Origin: Candidatus Egerieisoma sp. | GTDB lineage: Bacteria > Bacillota > Clostridia > UBA1212 > UBA1255 | Assembly (NCBI GenBank): GCA_045125595.1 | Contig: JBGVNN010000040.1 | Location: forward strand, 6,735 to 70,734 | Direction: 5' to 3' | DNA: 64,000 nucleotides | Shown here: one piece after another, positions 1,594-45,805 of the stretch | Layout: every line of letters starts with the position of its first letter | Position numbering within the stretch: position 1 is the stretch's first letter | Translations under genes and position numbers: made by a program | Notes under the pieces: generated by a model | Told to the model about the DNA's origin: nothing | Database searches by the model: none | What the model saw: the letters and a program-made list of their open reading frames with translations, nothing else

Positions 1594-1623
1594 AAAAACT
1601 TCATTTTATTGTTTTATAAAAAA

Positions 1624-4214: not shown

Positions 4215-4878
4215 TCTTACTCTCCACTTCACTAATAACTTTTTCGGTATACTTTGACAAAGCTAGTTCGGCATCCACATCAGAACTGTCGGCCAAACGG
4301 CATATCGAATACAGAAGCTCGCCTATTTCTTCCTCTCCCGCTTTTTCAAACTCTTCTCCGGACGGAAACTGTTCGCTCTTTCCTGCTTTTCGTATTTTTT
4401 TTGCTGCTTTTTGTGCTCTCATCAAAGCCGGTAAAACATCCGGAATATCCTCTAAATCTTGTTTAAGCGAAGAAAAACCTTTCTCTGTAAGCTTTCGTTT
4501 TTCCCAATTGTCAAGAGCCTCTTTTTCATTATCCACTTCAACATTACCAAAAACATGTGTATGTCTAAAAAGCATTTTCTTAGCGCATCTGTCAGTAACG
4601 TCCTCAAACCCGAATTTACCTTCTTCTTCAGCAAGAATAGAATGAAAAATAACTTGCAAAAGAACATCCCCCAACTCTTCGCAAAGTTTCTCCGCACTAT
4701 CTTTTTTTATAGCATCTACTGCCTCATACGCCTCTTCTATCATTGGTTTTATTAATGTTTCATGAGTTTGTACTCTATCCCAAGGACATCCCTCGGGCGA
4801 ACGTAAAAGCTCAATTATATGATAAAGCTCTTCTAACGAATATTTCTCTCCGTTTCTTTTCGGTTCTATTTGTATCAT
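4204..4878 (-). CDS. mazG: MazG-family nucleoside triphosphate pyrophosphohydrolase
   Basis: LRSPEGCPWDRVQTHETL plus EExYEAVDAI and EELGDVLLQV helices typical of MazG. Start placed at MIQIEPK (4878); the exact start is uncertain. Confidence 0.8.
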   Translation of the reverse strand: MIQIEPKRNGEKYSLEELYHIIELLRSPEGCPWDRVQTHETLIKPMIEEAYEAVDAIKKDSAEKLCEELGDVLLQVIFHSILAEEEGKFGFEDVTDRCAKKMLFRHTHVFGNVEVDNEKEALDNWEKRKLTEKGFSSLKQDLEDIPDVLPALMRAQKAAKKIRKAGKSEQFPSGEEFEKAGEEEIGELLYSICRLADSSDVDAELALSKYTEKVISEVESKNEN

Positions 4879-5021
4879 ATAAACACCTGTCATTCTCATA
4901 ATTATTAAAATTTGTTGCACGAAGCCACATATGTTGATTATAATACATTAAAGAGCTAAGGGCAAATTTTTATTTACTCTTTCAGCAAATTAGTATTTTA
5001 GCAAAGGCGTGTAAACAAATC

Positions 5022-7120: not shown

Positions 7121-7138
7121 TACGAAAACCTCCAATTC

Positions 7139-8533
7139 TTAATTATTCTGCTCATATTGAGTATTAATCTTCTCAACTCTGCTTACCAAAATTGAAGTTG
7201 CCATTTTTCTGGGACCATAAAGAGAAGCACATTGCGTAATAATCTGAGGATTATTTCCTGTTTCTGAATTCTGTGCCATATATGTAGACGAACCACCGTC
7301 TAAGTTTGCAGCATTTACAGCGCCGTAATTCATCATTATTTCTATCAAATCCTCATAAGTCGCACCCATACTTGAAGGCTGTCTGCCATCAATTGTAAGC
7401 AACAGCATAGCACCGTCAGCACGCTGTCCAATTGCTGTACGCGGATTAAGACCGGCCTCTGTAAAACCTCCCACTTCACAAGCCTTGCCATTCATTACAA
7501 GATACGGACCGAAATTCAAGGCCTCTACAATACCATTGTCCAAAGCTTGTTGAGGTGTCATCTTACCAAGAACAAGAATACCTTGTTTATTTATTCCGAT
7601 AACTTCGTATTCTCTATTTTTTTGACCGTACATAAGTACACCCTTGGAAATAACTATACCGTCAGAATTTTCTCTGCCTGTAGGTATACCGCCGTTACCT
7701 TTTCCTGTATCATAAAAGCCACCGCCGTTAACACCGTAAAGTGCATTATCATTCTTTACCATATTAAGTGTGGTCACACCTTCTTTATCATTGCCGTATG
7801 CAGCCGGTGTACCGATATATACTCGCTTAGGGTTTTGAACAATAAGAAGTTTTCCTCTATATGTTTTACCTTCTATATTGATGAGTTGAACGCTGTTAAT
7901 ATCAACCTTATTGCCGGGCTCGTCACCTTCTTTATCTCCGCTTTGATTATTCGGAAGCTGAATGAGTGTCGGGTCTGTTTTTGTTCCACTGTCTATAATA
8001 GCATTGCCTTCGACAATACTTTTAACCGTGTCATCCGACAAGAACCAAGTAGCCAAAAAGTCTGCCGCGCTCGTTTCCGTAACGGTCAATACAAATCTGT
8101 CTCTTGCCGACTCAGAAGGTCCATGAAGTATCAACAAAACAGCACAAAGCGCAACGAGCACCAACGACAACAAGAATGAAAGTACGGAAATCCCCACAAA
8201 AGCTAACGTCTTTTTCAATGATTTTTTGCTTTTGTTATTATCCTGATGTCTGTTTGTTCTTCTTGGCGCAGTCTGCGTTCTTGCTGAGGCTGTCGATGTT
8301 TTTCTGCCCGCTGAAGTATTTCTTGGCTGTGACGCCGTTCTGACAGTCTTTTTTTCTCTGTCATAAGAATCATTCACTCTGTTAAGGTTTGTAGGTCTCC
8401 TGCCGGTCACGCTGTGTATCTTTATGGCGGGCTCTCTTTTTTGTTTTCTTATTTGCCAATTTTCTATATATGTACAAAGCTTGTCTAAGACTTCTTCGCT
8501 ACCTTTTTTTGAATAATTAATCTTGTATTTCAT
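7139..8533 (-). CDS. phosphodiester glycosidase family protein (DUF2233-like), type II membrane topology
   Basis: Basic low-complexity N-terminus, one TM helix (LAFVGISVLSFLLSLVLVALCAVLLIL), and a C-terminal block ending NLDGGSSTYM typical of the family. Start chosen at MKYKINY (8533). Confidence 0.6.
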   Translation of the reverse strand: MKYKINYSKKGSEEVLDKLCTYIENWQIRKQKREPAIKIHSVTGRRPTNLNRVNDSYDREKKTVRTASQPRNTSAGRKTSTASARTQTAPRRTNRHQDNNKSKKSLKKTLAFVGISVLSFLLSLVLVALCAVLLILHGPSESARDRFVLTVTETSAADFLATWFLSDDTVKSIVEGNAIIDSGTKTDPTLIQLPNNQSGDKEGDEPGNKVDINSVQLINIEGKTYRGKLLIVQNPKRVYIGTPAAYGNDKEGVTTLNMVKNDNALYGVNGGGFYDTGKGNGGIPTGRENSDGIVISKGVLMYGQKNREYEVIGINKQGILVLGKMTPQQALDNGIVEALNFGPYLVMNGKACEVGGFTEAGLNPRTAIGQRADGAMLLLTIDGRQPSSMGATYEDLIEIMMNYGAVNAANLDGGSSTYMAQNSETGNNPQIITQCASLYGPRKMATSILVSRVEKINTQYEQNN

Positions 8534-15833: not shown

Positions 15834-16603
15834 TTAAATTTTTAAAACGTTTTTATCTCGGTTTAATATTACTTTTCTTGTACGCACCTATACTCGTGAT
15901 GATTTTATTTTCGTTTAACAAAGGCGATACTCGTGCAAACTTTACCGGATTATCTTTCCAATGGTATACAAAGATGTTCGAAAACAGCACTTTAATGGAA
16001 GCTTTGATAAATACTTTGGTTGTAGCGCTTTGTGCATCTGTAATTGCTACAATTTTAGGTACATATATTGCTTTTATAATTGCAAAAATGTCACCTGCAA
16101 ACAAAAGCATTTCAATGAAGCTTTTGAACATACCTATGCTTAATGCCGAGATAGTTACGGGTGTTTCACTCATGTTTTTCTTTGTATTTATATCTGTCTC
16201 ATTAGGCTTCACTACACTTTTAATTGCACATATAATTTTCGATGTACCTTATGTTGTACTGTCAGTACTTCCCAGAATAAGGCAGTCAAATAAAAGTGTG
16301 TATGAAGCAGCATTGGATTTGGGAGCTACACCTGCAATGGCTTTTCGTAAAGTTTTATTGCCGGAAATAATGCCGGGTATATTCTCAGGCGCTTTGCTTG
16401 CATTCACAATGTCTTTTGATGACTTTATAATTAGCTATTACACATCGGGTCCGGGATTTGTAACATTGTCTGTTTACATAAATACAATGACAAAACGAGC
16501 AATTCCTCTTACCATAAATGCCCTTTCGACATTTATCTTTGTATTGGTATTTATTTTACTTCTGGTAACAAACTTAAAAGGCAAAAAATCTACAGATAAT
16601 TAA
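15830..16603 (+). CDS. potC: spermidine/putrescine ABC transporter permease
   Basis: Multi-TM protein with EAA loop EAALDLGATPAMAFRKVLLP. There is a 4-nt overlap with potB. Confidence 0.85.
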   Translation: MIKFLKRFYLGLILLFLYAPILVMILFSFNKGDTRANFTGLSFQWYTKMFENSTLMEALINTLVVALCASVIATILGTYIAFIIAKMSPANKSISMKLLNIPMLNAEIVTGVSLMFFFVFISVSLGFTTLLIAHIIFDVPYVVLSVLPRIRQSNKSVYEAALDLGATPAMAFRKVLLPEIMPGIFSGALLAFTMSFDDFIISYYTSGPGFVTLSVYINTMTKRAIPLTINALSTFIFVLVFILLLVTNLKGKKSTDN

Positions 16604-16623
16604 ATTACTTTGGAGGTTACAAA

Positions 16624-17829
16624 ATGAAAAAATTTTCATTATTTTCAACACGTATTTTTACACTTGTAATGATAGCAATGATTACGCTGTCATGCTTCCC
16701 TACTCCTGCAAGTGCAGCAAAAACAGAGCTTTACATCTTTAACTGCGGTGACTATATTGCAGAGACAACAGTAGAAAAATTCGAAAAAGCTTATCCTGAG
16801 TACGAGGTAATATACGAAGTTTTTGACACTAACGAAGCCATGTATCAAAAACTTGTAAGCAGCAATATTCCTTATGATGTACTCATTCCTTCAGACTACA
16901 TGATAGAGCGTCTTATCAAAGAAGATCGTCTCAAAGAAATTGATATGTCAAAGCTTGAGAATTATAAATACATCGGTGAAGCTTATAAAAACACAAATTA
17001 CGATCCGGACAACAAATATTCGATACCTTATATGTGGGGTACACTCGGTATCCTTTATAACAAAGAAAAAGTAACTGAAACTGTGGACAGTTGGTCCATC
17101 CTTTGGGACGAGAAATACTCAGGTCAAATACTCATGCTCGATTCAATGCGTGATTCTATGGCAGTTGCTCTTAAAAAATTAGGATACGATCTTAATACTA
17201 CAAACCAAGCCGAAATCGATGCTGCCGCAAAAGCACTTGTTGAACAAAAACCTCTTGTTGCAGAATATGGCGTTGATATACTCAAAGATAAAATGATTCA
17301 AGGCTCATACTCATTTACAGTTGCATATTCAGGTGATGCTTTATATATGCAAAATCAAAACGCAGAGCTTAATGGCGGAGAATCTGTTTTGGAATATGTT
17401 ATTCCCAAAGAAGGCAGCAACTTTTGGATTGACGCGATGTGCATTCCGAAAACAAGTAAAAATACTGAAGGTGCAATGAAGTTTATCGACTTTATGTGTT
17501 CTACCGAAATAGCTTTTGACAATGTTGAATATATCGAATATTCTACACCTCACACAGAAGCTTTAAAGGAGCTTGGCGAAGATTATATCAACAATAATAT
17601 ATACAATCCTTCTGCTGAAATTTTGGCTAATTGCGATCCTTTTGCGTATCTTGAACCCGATGTTCAAGAATCCTATAACAAAGCATGGGAATCTGTTCGT
17701 CTTGCATCCAAAGGCGGTTCATCATATACAAAATGGATTGTAATCGGTGTTATAGCCGCAGTTATAATTGTTCTTGTTGTAGTATTTGTTCTTTATAAAA
17801 AGAAAATGAACAAACTCAAATACGACTGA
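16624..17829 (+). CDS. potD: polyamine-binding periplasmic-type substrate-binding protein with C-terminal TM anchor
   Basis: PotD/PotF-like sequence (YDVLIPSDYMIERL, IPYMWGTLGILYN). Signal peptide ends ASA-AK with no lipobox. C-terminal helix WIVIGVIAAVIIVLVVVFVLY. Confidence 0.85.
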   Translation: MKKFSLFSTRIFTLVMIAMITLSCFPTPASAAKTELYIFNCGDYIAETTVEKFEKAYPEYEVIYEVFDTNEAMYQKLVSSNIPYDVLIPSDYMIERLIKEDRLKEIDMSKLENYKYIGEAYKNTNYDPDNKYSIPYMWGTLGILYNKEKVTETVDSWSILWDEKYSGQILMLDSMRDSMAVALKKLGYDLNTTNQAEIDAAAKALVEQKPLVAEYGVDILKDKMIQGSYSFTVAYSGDALYMQNQNAELNGGESVLEYVIPKEGSNFWIDAMCIPKTSKNTEGAMKFIDFMCSTEIAFDNVEYIEYSTPHTEALKELGEDYINNNIYNPSAEILANCDPFAYLEPDVQESYNKAWESVRLASKGGSSYTKWIVIGVIAAVIIVLVVVFVLYKKKMNKLKYD

Positions 17830-22070: not shown

Positions 22071-24899
22071 TTAATCCGCTACAGAATAATATCTAACTGT
22101 CGAATCACCATACTTCATCATTGCTTTTACTAAATCACCAACACTTGCATCATTTTGTTTTTTGCACGCATAAGATTCTACTGAATAAATAAGTGTACCG
22201 CTCACAGCTTGATCATACTGATTGTAAACAGTAAAGCCGAATTCTGTACTCATATCATTAGCTGTCAAGTTATCAAACTCAAATGAGTATCTGCCTGTAT
22301 TTGTAGATGTAAGCTTGTCATTATTTATTATTTGTATAATGTTACCATTTAAATCTGTAACTTTTACATGAAGTCCTTCTTTTGAATCAGCTGCGAATGC
22401 CGGTCTAATAACAACCTTGTTAACAAGAACAAGTGTTGCACTCTTCCAAGCCAACAAATCCTCAACTGCGCCATCTTCTCCGGCATCAGGAACAGATGTA
22501 TGATCTACAAGTTCTCTTAATGTTTGTGTTCCCAAAGCAACTTGCTCAGGTGTCAAAATTGAATTAACAAGCTTATCAGTTTTGTAGTTTTGATAAATTT
22601 GGAAAGCTGTACCATATTGAATCATATCAACAATCAATGTTTTAACCGTTGCACTTGTCGACGCTTTTGAAAGCATGGATGTTGCATACTTAGCAACGCT
22701 GTATTTGGTCGGCGCACTAGCATAAACTTTACCATCAAGTTCACCATAGAGAACAAAATTAATCTCATCATTCATCATATAAGGCGAAATCTTTTTAAAA
22801 TCAAAGACATAAGAAGCTTTTCCGCTACCCGAAGTGCCCAAAGTAGGTTCTAAAATATCTAAAACTTCTGTTTGGAAAGCAGTATAGTAAGCATACAACT
22901 TCAAGTTTGTATATCCCACTTTGTCTATATCTTCTTTATATGCATACATACGCATTGTAATATCATTCTTCAAAATAAGTGTACCTGCATTCAACTTAAG
23001 ATCTGTATTAAGTTTATCTTTTGCTACAAAATTATCAAGTTCAAGAGTTTGACTTCTTGTAGCGAAAGCAATTGCTGAAGATGTAGAAACAAGTGCATTT
23101 TCAACAGTAGCAACTACCGCACCTTTTTGGTCCATAAGAGTAACTTCGCTATAATATTGCTCTTTATATTCACTGCTTACTGTAGGAACTTTAGGAGTTT
23201 TACAAACAACTGTTGCAAAAAGAACATCATTAGCGTAAAACTTAATTGTACCTGCATTATCATCAGAAACTCTGTATCTGTTGAAAGCAGCAAGATTCTC
23301 TACAACATCATAGTAGTAATTACCTTTTACGCAAAGGTTGCCATTATCATCAAGATATTTTACAAAAATTTCAATACAAGGTTTGCTATCAATTGTTCTG
23401 AAAGAGAAGCCGATACCTGTTGTACCTGTTGTACTGTTAGCTCCATCTTTTCTAACACCATCATTTGAGAAGAACACAATTTTCGGATTGTTTGTGATAA
23501 CTTCTTTACCGTATTTTACATAGAAACCTGCAAAATCGTTACCTGCAGAACCCATCTTAAGATCAAAAGCAAGCTCACTTGCACTTGTCCATCTGACATC
23601 AGAACAGAACTGTACAAAACCATCCATCTTTGCAGCATAACCGGGTGTTACTGTGAACGAACTGCTTGAACTTCCAAGATCCGGAGAAAACTTATCTTTG
23701 AAATAAGTAGCTCCTGCATAAAGATCTGAATTTGCAATATCTGTAGTAAAGTCATATGTATATCCTTCTTCTGTAGCACCATATGCACCTTCAAATGCTT
23801 TAACAACAGAATCAAAAGTATCACTTTCTTCAACTACATCAGACAACTGAGTAATCTCTGTTGAAATGTTTTGGCTGTTGATTGTCTCTGTACCATCAAC
23901 AATTAATTTTTCAACAATTACCAAATGATAATGACCTGCACCAGTCTCTGTAGAATCCGCAGAAATGTCAAAGTTCTTAGGTCCTAACAAATATGCAGCA
24001 TCAGTTGTGTGAATAGTTTTATTAACTTTAACTTGATGTGTGCTTACTGATACAAAAGGAAGTTTTGTTACACTTTCGTTAGCAACTCTTGCTTGTACTG
24101 TGCCAGCAAGGGTAGCAGATTTAATATCGAACGAAGTGTTATAATTGCCTACATACAAAGAACCTGCACCATTTGAATATTCAGAAAGAATAGCGTTTGT
24201 ATTTGAACAACTCAACTTAGAACCATTAGACATAGTAATTGTCGGTTTTGTTGTTGCGTCGCTGATAAACAATGCAAATCCGCCTGACCAATCATAAAGG
24301 CTTGAACCTGTTGTAAGCATAGCTGCATCAAGAACAACTTTAGGCGAACCGCTTACAACATTGATACAAGGACCAATAGCTGCGTTATTTAACATTGCAT
24401 TCTTAACCTTAACAGTTGCTGAACCTGATACAGAAATCAAGCCACCGCTTTGTTTAGGTGCTGTAAAAGCATAATGTTCAGATTTGTTTGCAACAAAATC
24501 TATAACACCGTACTTGCCGCTGTCTTTAATCTCAAGAGTTGCAGAGCTAGATACATTAATGGGGCTCTTCGGTACACCGGAAACCTCCATATACTCAAAA
24601 GCATCTGCCGTAAAAGTAACACCTTTACCGTTAAGCTCAATAACTTTACTTCCCGAAGACACTGAAATACAATTGTTTATTGCTGTTTCTGCGCTTGTAG
24701 CAGTAAACTCAATGTCTGCGGTTACAGTAATATTAACATCGCCTGTACTTTCCAACGCTGTTTTAAGCTCTGCCCATGTACCTACAGATACTGCTGTAGC
24801 AGCGCTAACTGTTGAAAAGCTAAGTCCTGACATCATGGTCAATATCATGCTCAATGCAATAATAGCACTGACAGCACGCTTTGAAAGACTCATTTTCAT
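22071..24899 (-). CDS. large secreted protein of unknown function
   Basis: 942 aa. Signal peptide ...SFSTVSAATA and RBS AAGGAGGA. The N-terminus is rich in short beta-strand repeats (possibly a beta-helix). No anchor motif was seen. Confidence 0.7.
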   Translation of the reverse strand: MKMSLSKRAVSAIIALSMILTMMSGLSFSTVSAATAVSVGTWAELKTALESTGDVNITVTADIEFTATSAETAINNCISVSSGSKVIELNGKGVTFTADAFEYMEVSGVPKSPINVSSSATLEIKDSGKYGVIDFVANKSEHYAFTAPKQSGGLISVSGSATVKVKNAMLNNAAIGPCINVVSGSPKVVLDAAMLTTGSSLYDWSGGFALFISDATTKPTITMSNGSKLSCSNTNAILSEYSNGAGSLYVGNYNTSFDIKSATLAGTVQARVANESVTKLPFVSVSTHQVKVNKTIHTTDAAYLLGPKNFDISADSTETGAGHYHLVIVEKLIVDGTETINSQNISTEITQLSDVVEESDTFDSVVKAFEGAYGATEEGYTYDFTTDIANSDLYAGATYFKDKFSPDLGSSSSSFTVTPGYAAKMDGFVQFCSDVRWTSASELAFDLKMGSAGNDFAGFYVKYGKEVITNNPKIVFFSNDGVRKDGANSTTGTTGIGFSFRTIDSKPCIEIFVKYLDDNGNLCVKGNYYYDVVENLAAFNRYRVSDDNAGTIKFYANDVLFATVVCKTPKVPTVSSEYKEQYYSEVTLMDQKGAVVATVENALVSTSSAIAFATRSQTLELDNFVAKDKLNTDLKLNAGTLILKNDITMRMYAYKEDIDKVGYTNLKLYAYYTAFQTEVLDILEPTLGTSGSGKASYVFDFKKISPYMMNDEINFVLYGELDGKVYASAPTKYSVAKYATSMLSKASTSATVKTLIVDMIQYGTAFQIYQNYKTDKLVNSILTPEQVALGTQTLRELVDHTSVPDAGEDGAVEDLLAWKSATLVLVNKVVIRPAFAADSKEGLHVKVTDLNGNIIQIINNDKLTSTNTGRYSFEFDNLTANDMSTEFGFTVYNQYDQAVSGTLIYSVESYACKKQNDASVGDLVKAMMKYGDSTVRYYSVAD

Positions 24900-32060: not shown

Positions 32061-32321
32061 GTGGGACGTGTCAGTTTATTTAAAAATAATGAAGTAGTTA
32101 ATCTTTCAGATGGGAGACGGCTCGGTTTTGTAAGCGACGCCGATATAAACTTTGAATCGGGTCGCTTGGAAGCCATAATGGTTGCCGGCGCAGGCAAACT
32201 TTTCGGCGCGCCGGCAAAGGATTCTGAACTTATTATACCTTTTGAAAAAATAAAAAAAATCGGTGATGATGTGATAATAGTAGATATCGAAGAAAGGGTT
32301 TTGAAATATTTGTTTAGATGA
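32061..32321 (+). CDS. ylmC: YlmC/YmxH family sporulation protein (PRC barrel)
   Basis: 86 aa with a GTG start. VVNLSDGRRLGFVSDADINFESGRLEAIMV matches the family. Confidence 0.8.
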   Translation: MGRVSLFKNNEVVNLSDGRRLGFVSDADINFESGRLEAIMVAGAGKLFGAPAKDSELIIPFEKIKKIGDDVIIVDIEERVLKYLFR

Positions 32322-32325
32322 AAAA

Positions 32326-32718
32326 TCAAACGCTTCTTTTATCAGGGAGTGAATAATCAACTTTTAATAAGTATAATACTGCGTTTGCTTTTTCTCTTAT
32401 TATTCTCCATTTATACGAGTTTATTATGGCCTCATCTGAAAAATCTCCAGGTTCAAGCTCTGAAATATATTCGTCTATGCTGATAATTTGTTTTAGTTCG
32501 TCAGGAAGGAAGGCATTCGCAGCTTCACTGGCACCAATATTTTTATACATTAGTAGCCAATCACCTAATGAATTTGCGATTTCATCTCCTTTACAAACAA
32601 AATCAGGAAAACAAGAAAGTTGAACTTCACCCTCACTGGCAAGAAGTTTAATGCTTTCAATTATACGATTTTTTAAAATCTCTATCTCTGATATAGATGT
32701 TTTCTTTTTCCTTAACAT
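32326..32718 (-). CDS. 130-aa acidic cytoplasmic protein, immunity-protein-like by context
   Basis: Start moved to MLRKKKTSIS (ATG 32718), with GGAG 7 nt upstream inside the end of the LRR gene and 4 nt between the LRR stop and this ATG. No signal peptide and no recognised family. Confidence 0.5.
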   Translation of the reverse strand: MLRKKKTSISEIEILKNRIIESIKLLASEGEVQLSCFPDFVCKGDEIANSLGDWLLMYKNIGASEAANAFLPDELKQIISIDEYISELEPGDFSDEAIINSYKWRIIREKANAVLYLLKVDYSLPDKRSV

Positions 32719-32722
32719 ATCT

Positions 32723-33676
32723 TTACTCCAAACGTCTCCAACTTTCAATCGATTCGTTTCCTCTTACATATTTTACTTTCGGAAGGTCTTTATCCTTAAT
32801 ATTATAGTGTTTTCGATTTTTCATTGAATACACATAGGATAAACCCATGCAAGGAGACAAATCACCATTCTTAACATTTACACTAAAGAGAAATGTCTTA
32901 AGATTTTTCATCATTTTAAGAAAGTTCAAATCAGGTATTTCATTACTACCTGAAAGTTCTAATAATTCCAGGTTATCTAATTCTCCTAAGACGGAAAAAT
33001 CTTCAATTTTAGGGCAATTTTCAATACGTAACATTTTTAGTGTTTTTTTTACTTTTTGTAATGCACTAATATCCTTTAGATATCTGTTATAGTCTAAATA
33101 TATGCATTGCATTTTTTCTGATTTCTGTATTCCATCTAAAGATTTTATTTTGCTTTGAAAAATCGAAATAGTATCTATAATCGGACTATTAAATGCCTCA
33201 TTTAAATCATCTTTTTTATAATTGGATATCCCAAAGCTTTTCAAAGTTTTAACTTCATTAAAATTTTTATATTCTTGATTTGTCACATGAATATCTTCAA
33301 GTCCTTTGATTTTTGCGCAATCAATACTGGTAGAAAATTCCTCTCTAAAACCATACACCGTCTGACAAATTAGCTGCTTTATTTGTGGCATTTTGTATAA
33401 CGGAGAATAATCAAACCCATCACCTGCACTATCCGCAGGAATAATTCTCAAATATTTTAAAGTTGGACAACTTGTAATAAAATCAATACTATCAGCAATT
33501 ATCAACGCTTTTTCTATCTTATTTGTATTAATAAAATCAATTTGTTTTTCCAAGCTATATATTGAACCTCTTATTAAAGGAGAGAAACACGCTACATCTT
33601 GAGGATACTTTATAATAATAGCATTATAAACATTCCCAGGATAAGTGATTGCCGTAAAAGCAAAACCATCTCTCAT
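32723..33676 (-). CDS. cytoplasmic leucine-rich-repeat protein
   Basis: Start moved to MRDGFAF (ATG 33676) with AAGGAGA 7 nt upstream. LRR-like periodicity in LKMLRIENCPKIEDFSVLGELDNLELLELSGSNEIPDLNFLKMMKNLKTF. No signal peptide. Very AT-rich. Confidence 0.65.
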   Translation of the reverse strand: MRDGFAFTAITYPGNVYNAIIIKYPQDVACFSPLIRGSIYSLEKQIDFINTNKIEKALIIADSIDFITSCPTLKYLRIIPADSAGDGFDYSPLYKMPQIKQLICQTVYGFREEFSTSIDCAKIKGLEDIHVTNQEYKNFNEVKTLKSFGISNYKKDDLNEAFNSPIIDTISIFQSKIKSLDGIQKSEKMQCIYLDYNRYLKDISALQKVKKTLKMLRIENCPKIEDFSVLGELDNLELLELSGSNEIPDLNFLKMMKNLKTFLFSVNVKNGDLSPCMGLSYVYSMKNRKHYNIKDKDLPKVKYVRGNESIESWRRLE

Positions 33677-33725
33677 TATATATCTCCTTGAAAAAACACT
33701 ACTATCTGTTATTACTTCATTTATA

Positions 33726-36700
33726 TCAATCACCAAAATACCTCCTTCCAGGGCTCCAAATCTTGTTGTATGTGAGACTTTCAAGCTGTCGTCCTTTGCC
33801 CCAATTGAAATAGTATCCTGACGTGTTGCTTCCATTTTTAAGCGAACGAAGATTACCTATCTCATCATACGTGAAATACCTTGTCCCGTATGCAGTCAAC
33901 AAATCTTTCCAGGTACCGTCTGTGTAGGCATACTGTTTTGTTGTCGAGCCTGTTATCGCCCCGGTCGCAACCGTATACGTTGACTCTGTCTTGCTTAATA
34001 TGTTGCCACACAAATCATATTCAAAGTCATACTGTTTACCTGTCGTTGCTCCCGGTTCAATTATAATCTCTCTTGTCATTTGTTGCAAGTCATCATACGT
34101 ATATTTTCGTACAAGGACATTATTTTTGTATATTTCCGTTATATTATTGCAATCATCATATACATATGAGTATTGCGAGTTCGTTACATTCAACGTAACT
34201 TTATCAATAGTATCACTTGTGGTGTTGGCGCCATTTCCGTTGCTGTACTCGTATGTACTGCCTGCATATACAGAATTGCCGGTGCTGTTTTTGACAATAA
34301 TTCCCGTAACTCTCTCCAAATGGTCATGCATGTACTCCACTTTGGCACCGTTCGGCATATTTACACTTTCTACTATGTCAGAAAACTCTTTGTACGAAAG
34401 ATGATAACTGCGTGGCACTTCTCCGTAAATATATGTTGTTTTAGATGCTCTGCCATATTGGTCAAAGGTGTTTTCTACCGAAAGAATATCTCCCTCTGCA
34501 TCCGTTTCTCTCATTCGTATGAGTCTGCCCAAAGTGTCATATTCTGAGATATATGAGATGCCGTTAGCTAAATCCTTTGTACAATACAAGTCACCATTAT
34601 TGTTATAGATGTACTCATACGTTTTTACTCCGTTATAGCTTACTGCAATAAGTCTGCCGAGTTTGTCATAATCATACTCTACATAATCACCGTTGCCATA
34701 ATCCATTTTCGTCACATATTTACCGGAAGTACTGTATGTATAACTTGCAAGCGGTGTTGTACGTCCATCCACTTTGATTTGTGTAGTGTCACCAAATTTA
34801 TTATATGTAAATGCATATCTCACATTGCCTTTGTTAATTTGCATGAGCAAATTTTGGTTATATGTATACTCAACAAAGGCTTCATTTGCATCGGCAACAC
34901 CATCATTATCTTTATCTTGAATTACTTGTGACAACAATCCGGTGTTCCAATAGTTATATGACCTTCTGCCTGCAGGAGAAAGTGTAGATAAAAGAACTCC
35001 ATTATTGTAGTTATATGTATTTGTTGTTATTTTACCTTTTGAATCTGTAACAGAGGTCAAATAATTACCTTTGTCGGAGTATTCATAACTGTTTGTGTAA
35101 GTAGTACCGCCGTTTGTATTGCTTGCCGTGGTTTCGGTAACATTTCCGTATATGTCGTATTCATAAGAAACTTTTACATTGTTTTTATTTGTTATGCTCA
35201 AAACATCTGCTTTCACGCCTTCTTCTGAGTCTGCATATATAAAAGTATATTCATCTCCATTCGGAAGAACTGATTTTAACAAATCAAGATTATTTGATGC
35301 ATAAGTAAGCATCGAATTTCCTGTTGCAGTGGAAACTGTTTTCACGTTACCTTCATCATCATATGTATAACACTGAGCCGGCTCAAGTGTAAGAGAAAAA
35401 TCCCCTACATATGAATTATTCGCATTGTTGTTATATGTACAGCCTATTGTAATATAATCAACTGTCTTAGATGCATTCGGTACAATAGGGATTGTAACAA
35501 ACTGCTTACTCCTGTTTTGAGTATTAATATCATGTTTTTTGGTACCGCTTGTGCCGTCTGTATAGTGCAAGGTACATTCCACACTGAAAGTTCTTTCTAT
35601 ACTTTCATTTATCGGATCTGTTCCTGTTCTTACAGAATTTGACTCTGCCCAAAAAGAAAGTGTATATGTATCTGTACCGGGTCTGTCAACCTCAATATTT
35701 TGAGAAAATGAAGATTTATTGTTGTTTCCTTTAGTTGTATCTCCTTGCATTTTCCATGCTTTTTTTATTGAGTAAGACGATTCGCTATATGTACTGTTAT
35801 TGCTTGTTACACCGGGTGAAGTTGTAGCTTTTTCAACCAAGTTATACTTACCGGGTGCTTTACCCTTTTCAAGTTGAAAACAGTCAACATATACTGTTCC
35901 CGTACCTGTGCCATCAATATATAAAAAGTATATTCCCGGCAAAGTTATCTCTACTGTGAAATATATACGTTGCCAACCGTTTTCTATTTCTGTATTTGTT
36001 GTTCCCAAAGGGAAATATATCCTGCTGTTTTCTATTATTCCCGCAATCGATGACCACAGATAAAATCCTGCTGTTCCTGTTACATTAACACTCTTTACAT
36101 ATGCAGAGAAACAATACGTACCGGCTTCATTTATACTGACGCTTCCACAAGAAGAATTGCCCGAAAGCTCTACTTTCAAAGAACGCTCACCTAAATATGC
36201 ATCACTCGTTGTATAAGACATACCTGTAACTAACGGGAACATATATGTATTCCCTGCTTCTTCAAAGCTTGGGTGCAAATACAAATTCTCTGACGAAACA
36301 TTTTTAATTGCTGCTTCTGATACTGTGTGATGTTTTTTAGTACCCTCTGCATTGTTATATGCTGTAGCCGCTGAGCCTAAAACGTTTCCGTAGTAATCAG
36401 TTACATAACTGCTTATTACTCTGCCATAATTATCACAACTATAAATTGTATATGTATCATTTGTAGAATCAGAGGCAGAGTCCTTTCCCCAATGTCTGAA
36501 TCTGACTGTCTTATCTCCATATTTGTATGCAGAGGTTTTATTCTCATCGGAGACATCTTTTAATTGTATTATGTTAGTTACACAACCACGCGAATCATAT
36601 AAAAAGCGAATCATTTCGTCATTAAGAGATGAATTTACAGAACGAAGTCTGCCATTTGTATCATATTCCATCTCTACTGTATTTACTAATGTTTCAGTAC

Positions 36701-38909
36701 CTGATATACGACTGTAATAGTTAAGACTTGTTAAAAGGTTATTCGTATATCCCATTGTAACCTTGTTGGTATCATTATCACTACCGCACACAAAATTGAT
36801 TCTGTTTCCTGTAAAAGATAATATCACAGGCATATCAAACGTAGTCTGCCCTGCGGCGTATTCCATAATTGAAATTATGTTTATACCATTATACCCGAAA
36901 ACCTTTTTATTTCCGTATTTATCTTCTATATGAGATATCAAACCTAAATTGTTAAATTCTTTCTTTATACCCTCTGGATTCACCATTACATAGGTCGTAC
37001 CTGTTTTTGTTATTGTATAATCAAGTCCGTCTTCACTTACAAATTTGCCGTTATTATCTTTGTCATAATAATAATGTTCTGTACCGTCAGCATCTTCATG
37101 AACATAATATAATCTTCCCGATATTGTCTTTTCATATATTTTCTCGGTCAAATTTAATCTTGTACCATTCCCTAACGTAACCTTATCTTCATTTGCCCAA
37201 GAACTGTTATATACCGCAGAAAAATTCACAGGCAAAATATTTCCCGGTGTTTCATACAAATTGTATACAAACGTCAAATTCCTGTTGAACACATTAACAT
37301 ACGCTGTACCTATGTTACTGAAATTAAAGCTCTCATATGTCCAATAATCCTCAAGACCTTTACTATCTCTGTAAGAAATAATCAACCTTGGTATCATAGT
37401 AGAATTTGCATTGTCTGACGAAGCAAGTCTTACATTCATATCCACCGATAAAGAATGATTTTTATCACCCATCAACACAATACCATTATTTGCCAACGTA
37501 CCGTCATACCACTTTTGTACAGTAGATGTTATATCCCAATTAAGAAACGTATTATTTGTATTACTTCCCGTTGTTACATAATCAAGAATTGTACTGTTAT
37601 AGGATGGTTGGTTGTTCCAAGTAATTGTCGACGAATCCCAACTACCCAACACCTCTCTTGCTGTTACTACAAGTCCGTTTGTACCGCTGTATCCCGGACT
37701 ATATGCAGGCATTTGATAATAATATAAAAGAGCTTGAGTTATAATCGAAGATGTTGGAAGCTCCGGTAAATTATTATACTTTGTATATACTCTCTCATTC
37801 TTTATGCTTGAAGCGCAATCATATCCGAGATATAAGATATCTGCACTGTTATATACATTTGTATTAGGAGCACCTTCTTTTATATAATTGTCTCTAACAT
37901 CTGTTGCCAGACCTTCTTTTATTAAAACGGGGTCTATAGTTACAGGGAATACCCTGCTTTCCTCTTCTATCCATTCTTTATCAGCTGTTACAGTAAGTAA
38001 ATATTGATTATTACCGTTATCTGATTTTATTTCATAACGAACCTCCTCTGATATTTCTCCTTTATTATCATACATATACGGAGTAGGTATCAAATATATC
38101 TCTTCATCACTTTCGCTGTCTAACAAACTTATACTATTGTCATCATTGCAAACAGGAATGAGATTCTTCAATTTTAAGGTAAATGTATAGGAGTATTTAT
38201 CGGCTTTTTCATTAACTATAATATTTTCTTTTACTGTCGTACCATTCAATATATACTCCAAGTCAACATCATTCCACAAATCAAAATATGTAATCTTTGA
38301 AGTTGTATTTTCCAAAATTGAAGCATCTTCAATTTTAAGCTTGTTCGATTTTTTATCTGTTTCTGCTGAATTTTCTGCAATAACAGCCTCAACCTTATTG
38401 GGAGTAACATCGCCTTTTTTGTACGCTCCTACAAAAATACTGTATTCTCCGTCTTTTACTCTATATAAATAGTTTGAATTACTTTTTTGAGAAAATTTAA
38501 CTTTTACATTATTCTTTTTATTTTCTACGCCTTTAATGCCATCTTCTTTTTCATCGCTTGTACACAGATTATTGTCTATATCTTGCCACAAACCATTTTC
38601 ATCAAGATAGTGAACGGCTTCCTCATATGTCGCAACTGCATATGAGCCATTTGACAATCTAAAATGTTTTTCTGTTTCAGTTCTAAGTGATGTTTCTTCT
38701 CCCAAGACATAAACAGCTTCGTCGTCTTGCTCCGCATCAAACAAAACTTTACTGTCAGTCTGTGAATTTTCACTGCTTGATTGAGTTACGGTATCATCTT
38801 GTAAAAGATTTCCTATTGCAATCACAGGTAAAGCTTCTACAAAAATCATCACAACTAACATCATAGAAATAAATCTTGAAATAAAAAATCCATTTGTTTT
38901 CTTTAACAT
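33726..38909 (-). CDS. Sec-secreted Rhs/YD-repeat protein lacking RHS core and toxin domain
   Basis: 1727 aa. Signal peptide, a DNRLRE-like domain (ITWNNQPSY, WDITSTVQKWYDG), many YD repeats (YEYDIYGNVTE, YDYDKLGRL, YTYDDEGNV) and two CBM-like modules. It ends ...FNWGKGRQLESLTYN plus 12 unrelated residues. Confidence 0.85.
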   Translation of the reverse strand: MLKKTNGFFISRFISMMLVVMIFVEALPVIAIGNLLQDDTVTQSSSENSQTDSKVLFDAEQDDEAVYVLGEETSLRTETEKHFRLSNGSYAVATYEEAVHYLDENGLWQDIDNNLCTSDEKEDGIKGVENKKNNVKVKFSQKSNSNYLYRVKDGEYSIFVGAYKKGDVTPNKVEAVIAENSAETDKKSNKLKIEDASILENTTSKITYFDLWNDVDLEYILNGTTVKENIIVNEKADKYSYTFTLKLKNLIPVCNDDNSISLLDSESDEEIYLIPTPYMYDNKGEISEEVRYEIKSDNGNNQYLLTVTADKEWIEEESRVFPVTIDPVLIKEGLATDVRDNYIKEGAPNTNVYNSADILYLGYDCASSIKNERVYTKYNNLPELPTSSIITQALLYYYQMPAYSPGYSGTNGLVVTAREVLGSWDSSTITWNNQPSYNSTILDYVTTGSNTNNTFLNWDITSTVQKWYDGTLANNGIVLMGDKNHSLSVDMNVRLASSDNANSTMIPRLIISYRDSKGLEDYWTYESFNFSNIGTAYVNVFNRNLTFVYNLYETPGNILPVNFSAVYNSSWANEDKVTLGNGTRLNLTEKIYEKTISGRLYYVHEDADGTEHYYYDKDNNGKFVSEDGLDYTITKTGTTYVMVNPEGIKKEFNNLGLISHIEDKYGNKKVFGYNGINIISIMEYAAGQTTFDMPVILSFTGNRINFVCGSDNDTNKVTMGYTNNLLTSLNYYSRISGTETLVNTVEMEYDTNGRLRSVNSSLNDEMIRFLYDSRGCVTNIIQLKDVSDENKTSAYKYGDKTVRFRHWGKDSASDSTNDTYTIYSCDNYGRVISSYVTDYYGNVLGSAATAYNNAEGTKKHHTVSEAAIKNVSSENLYLHPSFEEAGNTYMFPLVTGMSYTTSDAYLGERSLKVELSGNSSCGSVSINEAGTYCFSAYVKSVNVTGTAGFYLWSSIAGIIENSRIYFPLGTTNTEIENGWQRIYFTVEITLPGIYFLYIDGTGTGTVYVDCFQLEKGKAPGKYNLVEKATTSPGVTSNNSTYSESSYSIKKAWKMQGDTTKGNNNKSSFSQNIEVDRPGTDTYTLSFWAESNSVRTGTDPINESIERTFSVECTLHYTDGTSGTKKHDINTQNRSKQFVTIPIVPNASKTVDYITIGCTYNNNANNSYVGDFSLTLEPAQCYTYDDEGNVKTVSTATGNSMLTYASNNLDLLKSVLPNGDEYTFIYADSEEGVKADVLSITNKNNVKVSYEYDIYGNVTETTASNTNGGTTYTNSYEYSDKGNYLTSVTDSKGKITTNTYNYNNGVLLSTLSPAGRRSYNYWNTGLLSQVIQDKDNDGVADANEAFVEYTYNQNLLMQINKGNVRYAFTYNKFGDTTQIKVDGRTTPLASYTYSTSGKYVTKMDYGNGDYVEYDYDKLGRLIAVSYNGVKTYEYIYNNNGDLYCTKDLANGISYISEYDTLGRLIRMRETDAEGDILSVENTFDQYGRASKTTYIYGEVPRSYHLSYKEFSDIVESVNMPNGAKVEYMHDHLERVTGIIVKNSTGNSVYAGSTYEYSNGNGANTTSDTIDKVTLNVTNSQYSYVYDDCNNITEIYKNNVLVRKYTYDDLQQMTREIIIEPGATTGKQYDFEYDLCGNILSKTESTYTVATGAITGSTTKQYAYTDGTWKDLLTAYGTRYFTYDEIGNLRSLKNGSNTSGYYFNWGKGRQLESLTYNKIWSPGRRYFGD

Positions 38910-38948
38910 AATTTTATCCTCCCAAAAATAATATTATATATAATTCGG

Positions 38949-38977
38949 ATTTTATGATATATATACTGTTATGTCAA
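38949..38977 (-). promoter_or_regulatory. sigma-A type promoter of the Rhs gene
   Basis: The minus strand reads TTGACA (38977..38972), a 17-nt spacer, then TAAAAT (38954..38949). GGGAGGA RBS lies 7 nt before the ATG at 38909. Confidence 0.55.
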
Positions 38978-39291
38978 CGATAAATTTTAACGAATATTTA
39001 TATTATTTTTAGATATATTATATTTATTAATTAGTTATTTCTGTATTTTATCGTAAAATAAAGGATGAATAATTTGTGAACAACGCAAAAAAGCAAATTT
39101 TAAAGCTATTTTTTGATTATAAAATTTTTAAAGAATTGAAGGGAGTTTTATACAAAAAACATCCAATAAATGCAAAATTGTTAATTTTCAGCGAGCATAA
39201 ATCATCCGGATATTTTTGCCAATTTTCCGAACATAGAAAAAGTATCGAATTTTTAAGATCGTATTCTTACCCCGAAAAAATTTTTAACTCA

Positions 39292-42082: not shown

Positions 42083-45000
42083 TTATGACGCAGTAACTTT
42101 TACAGGTTGTGAATAAACATATACTGTTGTGCCGTTGCCGAGTTTATAGCTGAGGCGGAAAATTACCGTTGAAGTACCGGCTTTTGTTGCAGAAATCTTG
42201 CTGCCGTCAAAAGTGATACCTGTATTTCCGTCAACAACATACATCGCAGCACTTGTTGTAGTAGAAACTGCACCTGAATATGTTTCTTTTCTAACCGTAA
42301 CAGCTTTTGTACCGCCAACTGTCACTGTGTAAGAATTTGCCGTTGTGTAGAGTCTTTCAACATAGTTTTGAACAAAGTCAGAACGGTTTGTTGTAATACC
42401 CCATGTACCCATTGCAAAATATTCATTGAAGAGAGATGAAGGATCAAGTGTCCAAGGCCACATCGATACGCCTCTGTATGAACAATCCTCTAAAATATCC
42501 TCGGTAAGTCCCGAATGTCCCGGATTGTATGTGGTATTCCACTGTGAAGTAGTTTGCAACATACTCTCTACTGAAGTTACCGCTGTAAGTAATCCTCCGG
42601 AAATACTGGGTATATGAGTTCTTACTTCTTTAAGTTGTGCAAGGTGGAAAGATATTACACAACATTGATCTTGAATATCATATTTGTCAATGAGTTCTTT
42701 TAACTTAGGAACAATTGCAGTATTTTGTGTTTTGATTTCTATAAACAAGTTAACGCCTGTTCCTTTAAATGCCTTGAAGTAATCCTCAAGTGTAGGTATC
42801 TTTTCTCTGTATCCGCCGTAGTAGTCAACAACATATTGCTGAAGTTGAGCGTATGACATTTTTTCAATTTCGCCTGAACCGTTTGTTGTACGATTAATTG
42901 TCGGGTCATGCATAACAACGATAACGCCGTCTGTTGTGAGATAAATATCATTTTCTATAATATTTGCACCATAGTTAGCTGCCATTTGAGAACCTACGAT
43001 TGTATTCTCAGGAGCTAAATGAGGTATACCTCTGTGTCCAATAATATTTATCGGGCGAACTAACGAATTCTTTGCAAATACTGTTTTGTTCTCCATACAG
43101 CTTTCAAGACGAGCAACATTTGATGTTACAATACCATGAGCACCTGCTGTAATGAGCTTATACAAATCTGCTTTAGAGTCATTTGAAGACTTATACCATA
43201 CTGTAGTTGCCAAGCCTGCAAGATACGCTGTATTCTTTTGAGTAGCCAACGATGAAGGTAACAAGCAAATTCTGCAATCATAAAGGTTAGTATTCTCACG
43301 CAATGTTGCGAGGTCTGTTATGCCTGAATCTGTTGCATCATATACACCTTTTACCAATTTATGTGTAGCATGTGCTTTTACTATCAACGAACCGTCTTTT
43401 GCAACGATAAGTGCATCGTTAAATTTGTTCGCTTTAAGATATTTTGCGATTTGTGTTGCTTCTGTTGCAGAGTCAACTCTAAATGCAGGGATAACTGCTC
43501 CGCCCAACTTAAATATTGCCTCTGTTACTCCGCAAATAACGTTGTTACTGCTGTCAACTACATTCAACTTGCTGTCGATTGACATAATAGCAACAGCCGG
43601 TGAATTGGAGAGAATATTGTCAAGCTGTGATGCTTTTGTAATTTCTGTTACCATTGCAGCATCAAGAGCAATATTTGTATCAATATCTCTTACATTTGCA
43701 TATTTTGATGTATAGCTGTAAATTTTATCAAAATCAATAACAACTTTTACATCGTCATAAGCCGTTGTTGTGCCGCAAACTTGAAGTCCCACACGGCCTT
43801 TTGCGTAATCTGTAAGGGCTGTTGTAGTGAGTAACTTCGTACCGCTGATGTAGCTTGTAGCAGAATTTCCGTATACTTCAACTTTAAACAAATAGTTCTT
43901 AGCTGCGCTTATAGCCTCAGTATAAGATGTCTTGCCGTGGTATGCCCAACTGTTATTTGTGTTAGTCATATATGAGAACTCAACGCCGTCTTTTTGTGAC
44001 GAAGCTGCATTTGCTCTTATACAGTATTGATAATACGGATAGTCATTATTTTGTACTCTGTACATAAGAGCCATCCATCTTCTTGAATCTGCTTTTTCTG
44101 TTATTGTGGCATTTGTCATGAATGTGTAGTCACCAAAGTCACCGATAAATGAAGGTAAAAGCATTCTTACAAATGAGTTTGCATTTGCTTTTGCGCTGAG
44201 CAAGAGCTTACCGTTTGAAACGGAGTATGAACCGTTTGTATTTTGTACAACATTAAAACCACTTAAATCAGAAGAGCTAAAGTCATTATAATAAAGAACA
44301 TACTCTGAAGATGTCGGCTTTTTAGCTATCAAATATATCGTTTTAGTTGTAGAACCTGTCTTGGCTGTGAGCTTATAAACGCCTGCAGCAGTAGGTGTTA
44401 CTTTGCCGTTTGCATCTATTGTAATATCTTTTGAAGTCCAAGTGATTTCTTCTTTAGGTGTTATCTTCTTATCTTGTTTAAACTGAACGTTATATTCATT
44501 GAGGTCTACTGCATTACCTACATCAGCCGGAATAGCCGGAGCCGTAAACCATACTGTATTTTCTCTGCCTGCAGTTACTTTAGTAATTTCAAACTGCTGT
44601 GCCGCAGTACCGTTATATGTGTAGATAATTAATTTAGAGCCATCTGCTGTTGCATTTGCATATACGTCCAATACACAAGTATAAGATGATTTTGGTGAAA
44701 ATACGTATTTACCATCTACTTGATATATGAACCAAGCCTGCGCATTGGAAGAAGTAGCTGCTGCAGTTTTAACATTTGCAAGAGAACTGCCGGAGTCACC
44801 TTCAACCCAAAGCGAATTACCGTTACTTGTATTTTCAATTCTGTAACTGCCGTCAGAGTTACGTGTAAAGCGCCAAATCTGACTGCCGTTACGTGTTGTT
44901 GTGCTCACAACAGCACTCGATGAAGAAAGAGTAATATCTTTACCTGAAGCCGAACCTGTAATTCTTGCAAAGAAATATTCTCCGATATTCACTGGTGAAA

Positions 45001-45805
45001 GTGTATCGAGAACAGTAGGTTTAGATATCGAAAACATCTGTGTCGAATCACCTTTATATGTATTGGATTGCGCCTGAGAACCGGCAGATCCATTAACACT
45101 GAGCACACATGTGGGGGCTGCTTTAGAGCGAAGTATATACATACCGTTGCTATGTTTAAAAATAAACCAACGCTGAGCAGCAGTACCATTACTTGCATAC
45201 AAGCCAACTTTAGCTCCTGTGCTGTAACTTGCAGCCCAAACATCAAGTACAGTACCTGTATTCTTATTTTTTATTGTGTATGTACCGTCAGAATTTCTTG
45301 TGAAAATCCACATTTGAGTTTTATTTTGAACGCTTGTAGTTTTTACATCTACATTTGTTCCCGTGTACGACAAAGCAAGTCCCGAAGACGAAATTATTCT
45401 CGCTTCAAACTCTGTACCAAGATTGACACATGAAGCAGTAGTTCTCGGAGACTCTTTGTAGCCATAAGACGCAAAATGTGTAAATGCACTGGCATAATTA
45501 CTGCCAAAAGCATTTTTAAGGTCTCCGTTATTGTTTAAATAGTATTTAGCACTGAACACAGGGCTTCCTTGTCTGCCCTCTTTTGCTCCGTACTCAATAA
45601 AATGTTGATATAATTTTGATGGTTCATTACCATAAACCTTAACAACATCTGCATTATTCGCAGCATAATATGCTGAATCAAAAACCACTGATTTTATAGA
45701 TGAAGGAATCCAGTCACTTGCAGCATAGAAATTCATAGGCAAAGCAACCGCCAACATTATCAGGGTCAAACAAAGTGCCGAAAAACGTTTGATTTTCGCG
45801 TTCAT
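42083..45805 (-). CDS. modular secreted protein: ricin-type lectin repeats, LamG/jelly-roll-like module, glycerophosphodiester phosphodiesterase domain
   Basis: 1240 aa with a signal peptide. QxW-type beta-trefoil repeats (QMWIF, QRWFIF, QIWRF, QAWFIY). GDPD block IIGHRGIPHLAPENT...ENDIYLTTDGVIVVMHD. Confidence 0.75.
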   Translation of the reverse strand: MNAKIKRFSALCLTLIMLAVALPMNFYAASDWIPSSIKSVVFDSAYYAANNADVVKVYGNEPSKLYQHFIEYGAKEGRQGSPVFSAKYYLNNNGDLKNAFGSNYASAFTHFASYGYKESPRTTASCVNLGTEFEARIISSSGLALSYTGTNVDVKTTSVQNKTQMWIFTRNSDGTYTIKNKNTGTVLDVWAASYSTGAKVGLYASNGTAAQRWFIFKHSNGMYILRSKAAPTCVLSVNGSAGSQAQSNTYKGDSTQMFSISKPTVLDTLSPVNIGEYFFARITGSASGKDITLSSSSAVVSTTTRNGSQIWRFTRNSDGSYRIENTSNGNSLWVEGDSGSSLANVKTAAATSSNAQAWFIYQVDGKYVFSPKSSYTCVLDVYANATADGSKLIIYTYNGTAAQQFEITKVTAGRENTVWFTAPAIPADVGNAVDLNEYNVQFKQDKKITPKEEITWTSKDITIDANGKVTPTAAGVYKLTAKTGSTTKTIYLIAKKPTSSEYVLYYNDFSSSDLSGFNVVQNTNGSYSVSNGKLLLSAKANANSFVRMLLPSFIGDFGDYTFMTNATITEKADSRRWMALMYRVQNNDYPYYQYCIRANAASSQKDGVEFSYMTNTNNSWAYHGKTSYTEAISAAKNYLFKVEVYGNSATSYISGTKLLTTTALTDYAKGRVGLQVCGTTTAYDDVKVVIDFDKIYSYTSKYANVRDIDTNIALDAAMVTEITKASQLDNILSNSPAVAIMSIDSKLNVVDSSNNVICGVTEAIFKLGGAVIPAFRVDSATEATQIAKYLKANKFNDALIVAKDGSLIVKAHATHKLVKGVYDATDSGITDLATLRENTNLYDCRICLLPSSLATQKNTAYLAGLATTVWYKSSNDSKADLYKLITAGAHGIVTSNVARLESCMENKTVFAKNSLVRPINIIGHRGIPHLAPENTIVGSQMAANYGANIIENDIYLTTDGVIVVMHDPTINRTTNGSGEIEKMSYAQLQQYVVDYYGGYREKIPTLEDYFKAFKGTGVNLFIEIKTQNTAIVPKLKELIDKYDIQDQCCVISFHLAQLKEVRTHIPSISGGLLTAVTSVESMLQTTSQWNTTYNPGHSGLTEDILEDCSYRGVSMWPWTLDPSSLFNEYFAMGTWGITTNRSDFVQNYVERLYTTANSYTVTVGGTKAVTVRKETYSGAVSTTTSAAMYVVDGNTGITFDGSKISATKAGTSTVIFRLSYKLGNGTTVYVYSQPVKVTAS

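Follow-up and report, generated by a model that had tools for sequence, protein, structure and literature searches.

Rhs/WapA polymorphic toxins, of which WapA of Bacillus subtilis and WapA-CT1 of Streptococcus suis are described examples, are the closest known counterparts of the gene analysed here, a truncated rhs/wapA-type gene of Candidatus Egerieisoma sp. The gene lies in a stretch of 64,000 nucleotides (nt; contig JBGVNN010000040.1 of assembly GCA_045125595.1, positions 6,735 to 70,734), hereafter the window, and positions given without another source are those of the window. WapA-CT1 carries a DNRLRE domain and is a Sec-dependent Rhs/WapA toxin of a Gram-positive bacterium (PMC12704120). 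In common with these toxins, the window locus has a long YD-repeat shell, a DNRLRE module and related truncated orphans, as well as an N-terminal segment that resembles a signal and, 3' of rhs, a putative immunity gene, and its full-length alleles, represented by the proteins P0121 and P0122, have the core and variable C-terminal toxins. It differs from them in that the window allele has neither the RHS-associated core nor a toxin, in that genes for LysM, sortase or SecF-like partners were not observed beside the window rhs gene, and in that its families of C-terminal toxins and of leucine-rich repeat (LRR) putative immunity proteins are uncharacterised. The comparisons described below indicate that the locus is, with high probability, a disarmed Sec-type (WapA-like) Rhs polymorphic-toxin operon from an Oscillospiraceae-like Clostridium of gut or rumen, and its long gene a deletion allele of an ordinary toxin gene.

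Displacement of C-terminal regions, orphan rhs modules and retained arrays of immunity genes are established phenomena (PMC5361080, PMC12704120). Arrays of immunity genes left behind after displacement or loss of an effector are known from the T6SS (type VI secretion system) of Vibrio cholerae (PMC5361080), and orphan immunity genes of Bacteroidales are described as well (PMC12247911). As in those arrays, putative cognate immunity genes outlast the effector at the loci compared here. L006, L008 and L010 carry arrays of small immunity-type genes 3' of rhs, with 3'-end fragments of effectors beside them. Unlike the V. cholerae arrays, they belong to a Gram-positive Sec/Rhs system, and the deletions repeatedly end just 5' of the ribosome binding site (RBS) of the immunity gene, within the last 16-24 codons of the toxin.

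C-terminal displacement was reportedly put forward as the origin of orphan rhs modules by Jackson et al. 2009 (cited in PMC5361080), and recombination between main and orphan rhs genes is said to have been described in Salmonella by Koskiniemi et al. 2014 (cited in PMC12704120). As in the Salmonella case, the present locus and its relatives involve an incomplete rhs 3' fragment that lies downstream of the main copy and has a few hundred nt in common with it, and a probable recombination by which the end of the orphan is joined to the main gene with loss of the intervening DNA. In Salmonella, however, the orphan brings a live toxin, whereas here it had already lost both core and toxin, and the recombinant is unarmed.

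A 1727-codon rhs gene without core or toxin

The truncated gene (33726..38909, minus strand) comprises 1727 codons, encoding a CBM96/DNRLRE module and a YD-repeat shell that extends to residue ~1711, with no core, and its product ends in ...YYFNWGKGRQLESLTYNKIWSPGRRYFGD before the stop codon. Pfam and NCBIfam searches of the window protein placed the CBM96/DNRLRE module at residues 338-511 (nt 37377..37898), with the DNRLRE domain NF033679 at an E value of 1.3e-26, and detected RHS repeats (PF05593) at 3.7e-9, the feature of a long YD-repeat shell. A hydrophobic, signal-like segment at the N-terminus (MLKKTNGFFISRFISMMLVVMIFVEALPVIAIG) was read by eye. Neither the TIGR03696 core (at E<=0.01) nor PF25023 nor any toxin domain was found in the window protein by the same searches, and as a control TIGR03696 matched P0121, P0122, P0003 and the orphan of L010 at E values from 1e-16 to 2e-21.

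When the C-terminal 400-450 residues of three relatives (P0003, P0002 and P0005) were used as tblastn queries, homology stopped at 33768-33774, and no core or toxin coding sequence was found in any frame within the 64 kb. A frameshift masking a continuing open reading frame (ORF) was considered and rejected, as tblastn gave no match past 33768 in any frame over the whole window. The initial annotation had described a 1727-residue ORF devoid of RHS core and toxin, and this description was borne out by Pfam, NCBIfam and tblastn alike; the comparison of RHS-repeat and RHS-core profiles that it had proposed matched the repeats and not the TIGR03696 core.

Homologues of the window protein numbered 451 at E<=1e-10, with a query coverage of 97-99% and a usual length of ~2050-2100 residues. 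The 90%-identity cluster to which the window protein belongs also includes P0121 (2097 residues) and P0122 (2091 residues), which are collinear with it up to ...NWGKGRQLESL and then continue with AFGETAESAEVYVEYGYNADGIRISR... into a TIGR03696 core at residues 1813-1910 (E 1e-16 and 4e-17, respectively), followed by two different C-terminal toxins. Residues 1804-1908 of both proteins match the solved Rhs cores 8h8a, 8cp6 (Tse5) and 7q97 (RhsA), and these residues are precisely the portion absent from the window protein. In solved structures, the core region plugs the Rhs cage. At the nucleotide level, positions 39113..33770 were 89-91% identical (blastn) to the full-length genes of L006 and L008.

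A toxin-less open shell, used for instance as an adhesin, had been one of the two explanations offered by the initial annotation. As P0121 and P0122 belong to the same cluster and run on without interruption at this position into core and toxin, a shell purpose-built without a toxin is refuted by the criterion which that annotation had itself set. The truncation observed here is ordinary decay of a known system, producing a degenerate allele of the Rhs/WapA family and not a new kind of protein.

The deletion junction, the toxin remnant and the LRR gene

Alignment with related loci, which had been suggested as a means of locating the breakpoint, placed it within a TCTC microhomology of 4 nt (33774..33777, minus strand; 33777..33774 in the direction of the gene) in a three-way nucleotide comparison. 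This tetranucleotide is common to the intact shell, where in L006 ...GAAAGTCTC is followed by GCATTC, and to the 3' end of the toxin, where in L010 ...GACCTTCTC is followed by ACATAC. In the aligned rows, the window reads ...CAGCTTGAAAGTCTC before the breakpoint and ACATACAACAAG... after it, the intact shell of L006 ...CAGCTCGAAAGTCTC and GCATTCGGAGAA..., and the toxin end of L010 ...AGAGACCTTCTC and ACATACAACAAG..., with 8/10 positions matching around the breakpoint over TCTCRCATWC. The allele, which is specific to the window strain, lacks ~349 codons compared with an L010-type module, and the deletion is in frame. The microhomology at the junction argues for an in-frame illegitimate deletion that spared the RBS and the immunity gene. 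The same junction was found in L009, L014 and L015, and thus it is not a one-off sequencing error.

According to the initial annotation, the protein ended in 12 unrelated residues, which proved not to be so. The last 16 codons (LTYNKIWSPGRRYFGD; 33729..33776, minus strand), which precede the TGA stop (33726..33728, minus strand), are 100% identical (16/16 residues) to the end of an Rhs C-terminal toxin in L010, L011 and L012. In these three loci, an orphan Rhs fragment of 528 residues, made up of the end of the shell, a TIGR03696 core and a C-terminal domain of 177 residues, precedes an LRR gene. The orphan toxin ends in ...SNRDLLTYNKIWSPGRRYFGD, and its stop codon overlaps the start of the LRR gene through a GTGATTGA identical to that of the window. 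Full-length toxins of this family are expected to end in ...TYNKIWSPGRRYFGD, and the motif TYNKIWSPG[RK] also ends 11 further toxins located 5' of LRR genes.

The toxin family itself has a length of ~177 residues, with a conserved linker, DLIPFVTG.GEVTR, in addition to its conserved TYNKIWSPG[RK] end. It is represented in L010 at 6422..8008 and was also seen 5' of the LRR gene, with which it regularly forms a pair, in L018, L025, L032, L034, L035, L037, L043 and L049-L052. The lost toxin (~177 residues) had no sequence match in Pfam or the PDB, the best Pfam model being the 5'-3' exonuclease SAM-fold at a sub-threshold E value of 0.012.

The LRR gene of the window (32723..33733, minus strand; Pfam LRR_4) encodes a putative cognate immunity protein of 336 residues from a GTG codon at 33733, which stands seven nt after a GGAGG, with an overlap of 8 nt (GTGATTGA) between this start and the stop of rhs. 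This GGAGG (33744..33748) sits within the 16 retained toxin codons, so that the codons for PGRRY are at the same time the Shine-Dalgarno sequence of the LRR gene. The LRR protein has at least 600 homologues at E<=1e-3, and the best 120 of them listed were 57-75% identical to it, except for the near-identical P0131 (99%). When aligned LRR proteins were used to scan metagenome contigs, 37 independent loci were obtained. An intact toxin of the lost family (46-90% identity) lay directly 5' of the LRR gene in 11 of these, and in four others a different junction was found, with unrelated DNA followed by the last 19 codons of the toxin and the LRR gene; in L013 the LRR gene occurs alone. In L017, the LRR gene is separated from a toxin-immunity pair by the gene of a 484-residue protein of no known family (1196..2650), a passenger without an immunity role.

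The identity of all 16 residues, together with the linkage of toxin and LRR gene in L010-L012 and in the metagenome loci, is why the tail is taken to be what is left of the lost toxin gene at its 3' end. Judged by sequence and position, the tail is that remnant, and the LRR protein is the positionally cognate candidate, a putative immunity protein of the lost toxin. The other explanation in the initial annotation, that a deletion or recombination had replaced the toxin tip with foreign DNA, thus stands in part: a deletion did occur, at the TCTC, but the DNA beyond it is the toxin's own 3' end and the LRR gene.

Origin of the fused allele and constraint on the shell

The segment 31958..34164 (minus strand) matched, with 99.3% identity (blastn), an orphan module of L009 consisting of an rhs 3' fragment with the junction, the LRR gene, a gene for a 130-residue protein and a PRC gene. 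In L009, the junction-bearing fragment is an orphan located ~3.1 kb downstream of the main rhs copy, and L014 and L015 are arranged alike; in all three loci, the fragment equal to 34164..33726 of the window fits the definition of an orphan rhs module. In the window, where main gene and fragment are joined, no separate orphan is present. Upstream of the fragment, the window and the main copy of L009 were 95.9% identical (blastn), and in a site-by-site comparison the change of the window from the main haplotype to that of the orphan fell between 34140 and 33944. Recombination of a main rhs gene with an orphan is the probable source of the window allele. Just 5' of the orphan fragment of L009 (~4640..4900), the intergenic DNA translates into a repeating peptide (..KTRNFVPFDR.K..KKLN..), which indicates tandem DNA repeats of ~60 nt; these are absent from the window.

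In the scenario that we infer for the order of events, for expression, for the function of the immunity genes and for the lack of function of the shell, the ancestor would have encoded a ~2090-residue protein made up of a signal peptide, a DNRLRE module, a YD-repeat shell, an RHS core bearing the self-cleavage site D..G.(F)W, and a C-terminal toxin of ~177 residues ending in ...LLTYNKIWSPGRRYFGD, with the start of the LRR immunity gene overlapping the stop of the toxin. In a first step, an illegitimate deletion between two TCTC tetranucleotides would have removed ~349 codons with the frame kept, that is, the last ~100 residues of the shell, the core plug and 161 of the 177 toxin residues, sparing the last 16 codons, which bear the Shine-Dalgarno sequence of the immunity gene. 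In a second step, the main gene and the orphan would have undergone homologous recombination, with the crossover in 34140..33944, so that the ~3.1 kb between them was deleted and the ORF of 1727 codons created. As a result, no toxin would be made or loaded from this locus, while the LRR gene and the second orphan gene (130 residues) would still be transcribed from the strong rhs promoter and translated by coupling, and would protect against neighbours that still carry the toxin.

Several observations weigh against this reading. The remaining ORF of 5.1 kb carries no further lesion. A full 5' rhs gene joined to the toxin-less fragment was found in the window alone, the other three assemblies carrying the orphan, and the change may have run from an L009-like state to that of the window or the reverse. 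In addition, when lineage-specific single-nucleotide codon changes were counted by parsimony, the window branch had 14 non-synonymous to 75 synonymous changes, compared with 16 to 61 on the branch to the intact genes of L006 and L008. Therefore, there is no sign of relaxed constraint, as would result from either a recent event or continued selection, which these counts cannot separate. The intact ORF and these counts together exclude that the gene has long been a pseudogene, and the shell may still be under selection. The view of the initial annotation that the gene does not look like a silent relic is compatible with them, as is a recent event.

The confinement of the join to the window, with the orphan type in three further assemblies that share its species-level sequence, would also result if the assembler had passed through a near-identical repeat of ~220 bp (34164..33945) from the main copy to the orphan, skipping ~3 kb. 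The true genome would then be L009-like, with several small genes between a main rhs gene that has its own 3' end and the orphan fragment, and the 1727-residue ORF an artefact, although the toxin-less junction would still be real. The main and orphan copies of L009 do share an exact stretch of 76 nt (34020..33945) and ~220 nt at ~97% identity, and the exact product seen in the window is absent from all other contigs on record. However, the haplotype of the window at 33944..33860 is a fine mosaic unlike either copy of L009, so that the window strain cannot simply be equated with L009; between its 5' rhs region and the main copy of L009 there is a difference of 4%; recombination between main and orphan rhs genes is a documented natural event; and no positive sign of misassembly was seen. 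Such a short-cut is therefore considered unlikely.

A different history would have the window arrangement as the ancestral one, with the L009 types having gained a new rhs 3' module by which the toxin-less end was displaced, to become a downstream orphan. C-terminal displacement is the classical route to orphans, and the main copy of L009 has diverged by 4% over 2.1 kb compared with 0.7% in the flank, as imported DNA would. This polarity nevertheless requires more steps, the module imported into L009 would itself have been broken by two deletions, and the orphan form is present in three of the four assemblies. We regard it as a possibility to be taken seriously, though the less likely order. 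Since the junction and the tail are identical either way, the explanation of the truncation would be unchanged.

The low count of non-synonymous changes, together with 1711 intact shell codons and a strong promoter-like site and RBS, would also be compatible with a truncated protein that functions as a toxin-less shell, displayed or secreted by means of its signal peptide and DNRLRE/CBM-like modules and selected for a role in adhesion or at the surface. Truncated alleles do persist, as P0002, which is truncated differently, recurs without change in 13 contigs, drawn from several samples, and in one metagenome-assembled genome (Oscillospiraceae SIG426, the sole locus obtained from a scan of genome contigs). 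On the other hand, full-length toxins are found in the same cluster, the tail is the remnant of a toxin and not a new C-terminus, and the core-less protein is without the region that aligns to the solved Rhs core structures. Moreover, the sister allele of L009 (its main copy) has one deletion between GAGTTTTA repeats of two YD motifs, which shifts the frame, and a second one joining DVVEL to the IPFVTG linker, which removes the core, and in P0004, whose locus is syntenic with that of the full-length P0003, the shell is fused in frame to a random ABC-ATPase fragment. The pattern is one of decay and not of redesign. A functional shell is thus very improbable, and the truncated shell is most likely a recent, functionless by-product.

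The rhs operon, its neighbours and decay across the clade

A sigma-70-type promoter-like site of the rhs operon, TTGACA-17-TAAAAT (38949..38977, minus strand), agrees with 11 of the 12 consensus positions and is the best match of the region; it is a putative promoter by this consensus match and falls within the 204 nt 5' of the ATG that are kept in L006 and L008. The RBS GGGAGGA (38917..38923, minus strand) and the ATG at 38909 were read from the sequence, and all three elements (38977..38949, 38923..38917 and 38909 in the direction of the gene) agree with what the initial annotation had reported. No terminator-like site was detected on the minus strand between the rhs, LRR and 130-residue protein genes, the sole such site nearby on this strand belonging to the upstream pnp gene.

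Upstream of rhs lie rpsO and pnp. On the 3' side, the LRR gene and the gene for the 130-residue protein follow on the same strand, then comes a convergent PRC-barrel (ylmC-type) gene (32061..32321, plus strand), and after it spoIIGA, sigE and sigG. The interval between the rhs stop and ylmC thus holds two genes (32723..33733 and 32326..32718), which corrects the initial annotation on this point. The gene for the 130-residue protein (32326..32718, minus strand) starts 4 nt past the stop of the LRR gene and is convergent with the PRC/ylmC gene. Its homologue in L006 (18387..18755) is 92% identical and directly follows an rhs-shell fragment in which SLKNG is fused to a tail of six codons, IKRFRY, before the stop. 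No Pfam or NCBIfam family was assigned to this gene or to the neighbouring immunity-type ORFs of L006, L008 and L009; it is probably a second orphan immunity gene. Elsewhere in the window, two large putative surface proteins are encoded on the minus strand, one of 1240 residues with ricin-type lectin repeats and a glycerophosphodiester phosphodiesterase domain (42083..45805) and one of 942 residues with a pectate-lyase-like adhesive domain (22071..24899).

The rhs island as a whole (32322..39113) was 89-92% identical to L006 and L008 (blastn; compared stretches 7850..19743 of L006 and 9800..23759 of L008). In contrast, the PRC-spoIIGA-sigE-sigG flank was only ~74% identical, and the upstream flank was non-homologous, with rpsO-pnp in the window and ftsA-ftsZ in L006 and L008. 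Therefore, the island looks as if it had been exchanged between species and its left flank rearranged, in the manner of a rearrangement hot spot. In L006 and L008, arrays of small genes with decayed toxin pieces lie beside the intact rhs genes. As a passenger that is not an immunity gene, these arrays also contain, on the opposite strand, an AAA_14/DUF4143 ATPase gene (16740..17987 in L006, 20890..22137 in L008).

Truncated relatives were surveyed with regular expressions for core motifs, which were too strict to classify the long proteins. Among the short proteins of the 120 best matches, only P0001, P0002 and P0004 had tails unrelated to Rhs, whereas the remaining ones break off within YD repeats, most likely because the contig ends there. 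P0002 and P0004 represent independent truncations in two related lineages. P0002 (1823 residues, 73% identical) has a non-Rhs tail of 24 residues that overlaps an immunity-type gene. By eye, this tail resembles the end of the GH-E/HNH-like toxin of L017 (GINFYDF and GENFYIF, respectively), a similarity that is suggestive and for which homology is not claimed. At the P0002 locus in L001 and L016, a duplicated internal fragment of the rhs shell (82 codons, MRETTEAGERLSVENSFDQYGRATK...; 16383..16631) lies 3' of the truncated gene and the immunity-type gene, which is a further trace of rearrangement there.

At least four independent deletions, namely that of the window and L009, that of the L017 type, that of P0002 and that of the L006 orphan, end in the last 6-24 codons of the toxin, just 5' of the RBS of the immunity gene. 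In the window the tail can be shown to share the reading frame of the toxin end, and in P0002 it appears to do so, and therefore the original overlap of stop and start codons is kept. It may tentatively be suggested, as an idea that is more doubtful than not, that loss of the toxin with retention of immunity is recurrent and selected in this Oscillospiraceae Rhs clade, as opposed to random decay, and that the disarmed ORF with its strong promoter serves as a platform for expression and translational coupling in an immunity-only 'cheater' operon; if true, this role would explain why the ORF is intact.

The locus offers a base-by-base view of how a polymorphic toxin of an uncultured Firmicute from gut or rumen is disarmed while its immunity gene is retained. 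For genome annotation, long core-less Rhs ORFs should be interpreted as deletion alleles, with the gene that comes first on their 3' side as an orphaned immunity gene, and they should not be counted as a new class of toxin-less shells. Moreover, an uncharacterised family of C-terminal toxins can now be paired with a large family of LRR proteins, its likely immunity partner. If the pattern of deletions that spare the RBS and preserve the frame were selected, it would clearly exemplify cheating by immunity alone in the contact-independent antagonism of Gram-positive bacteria.

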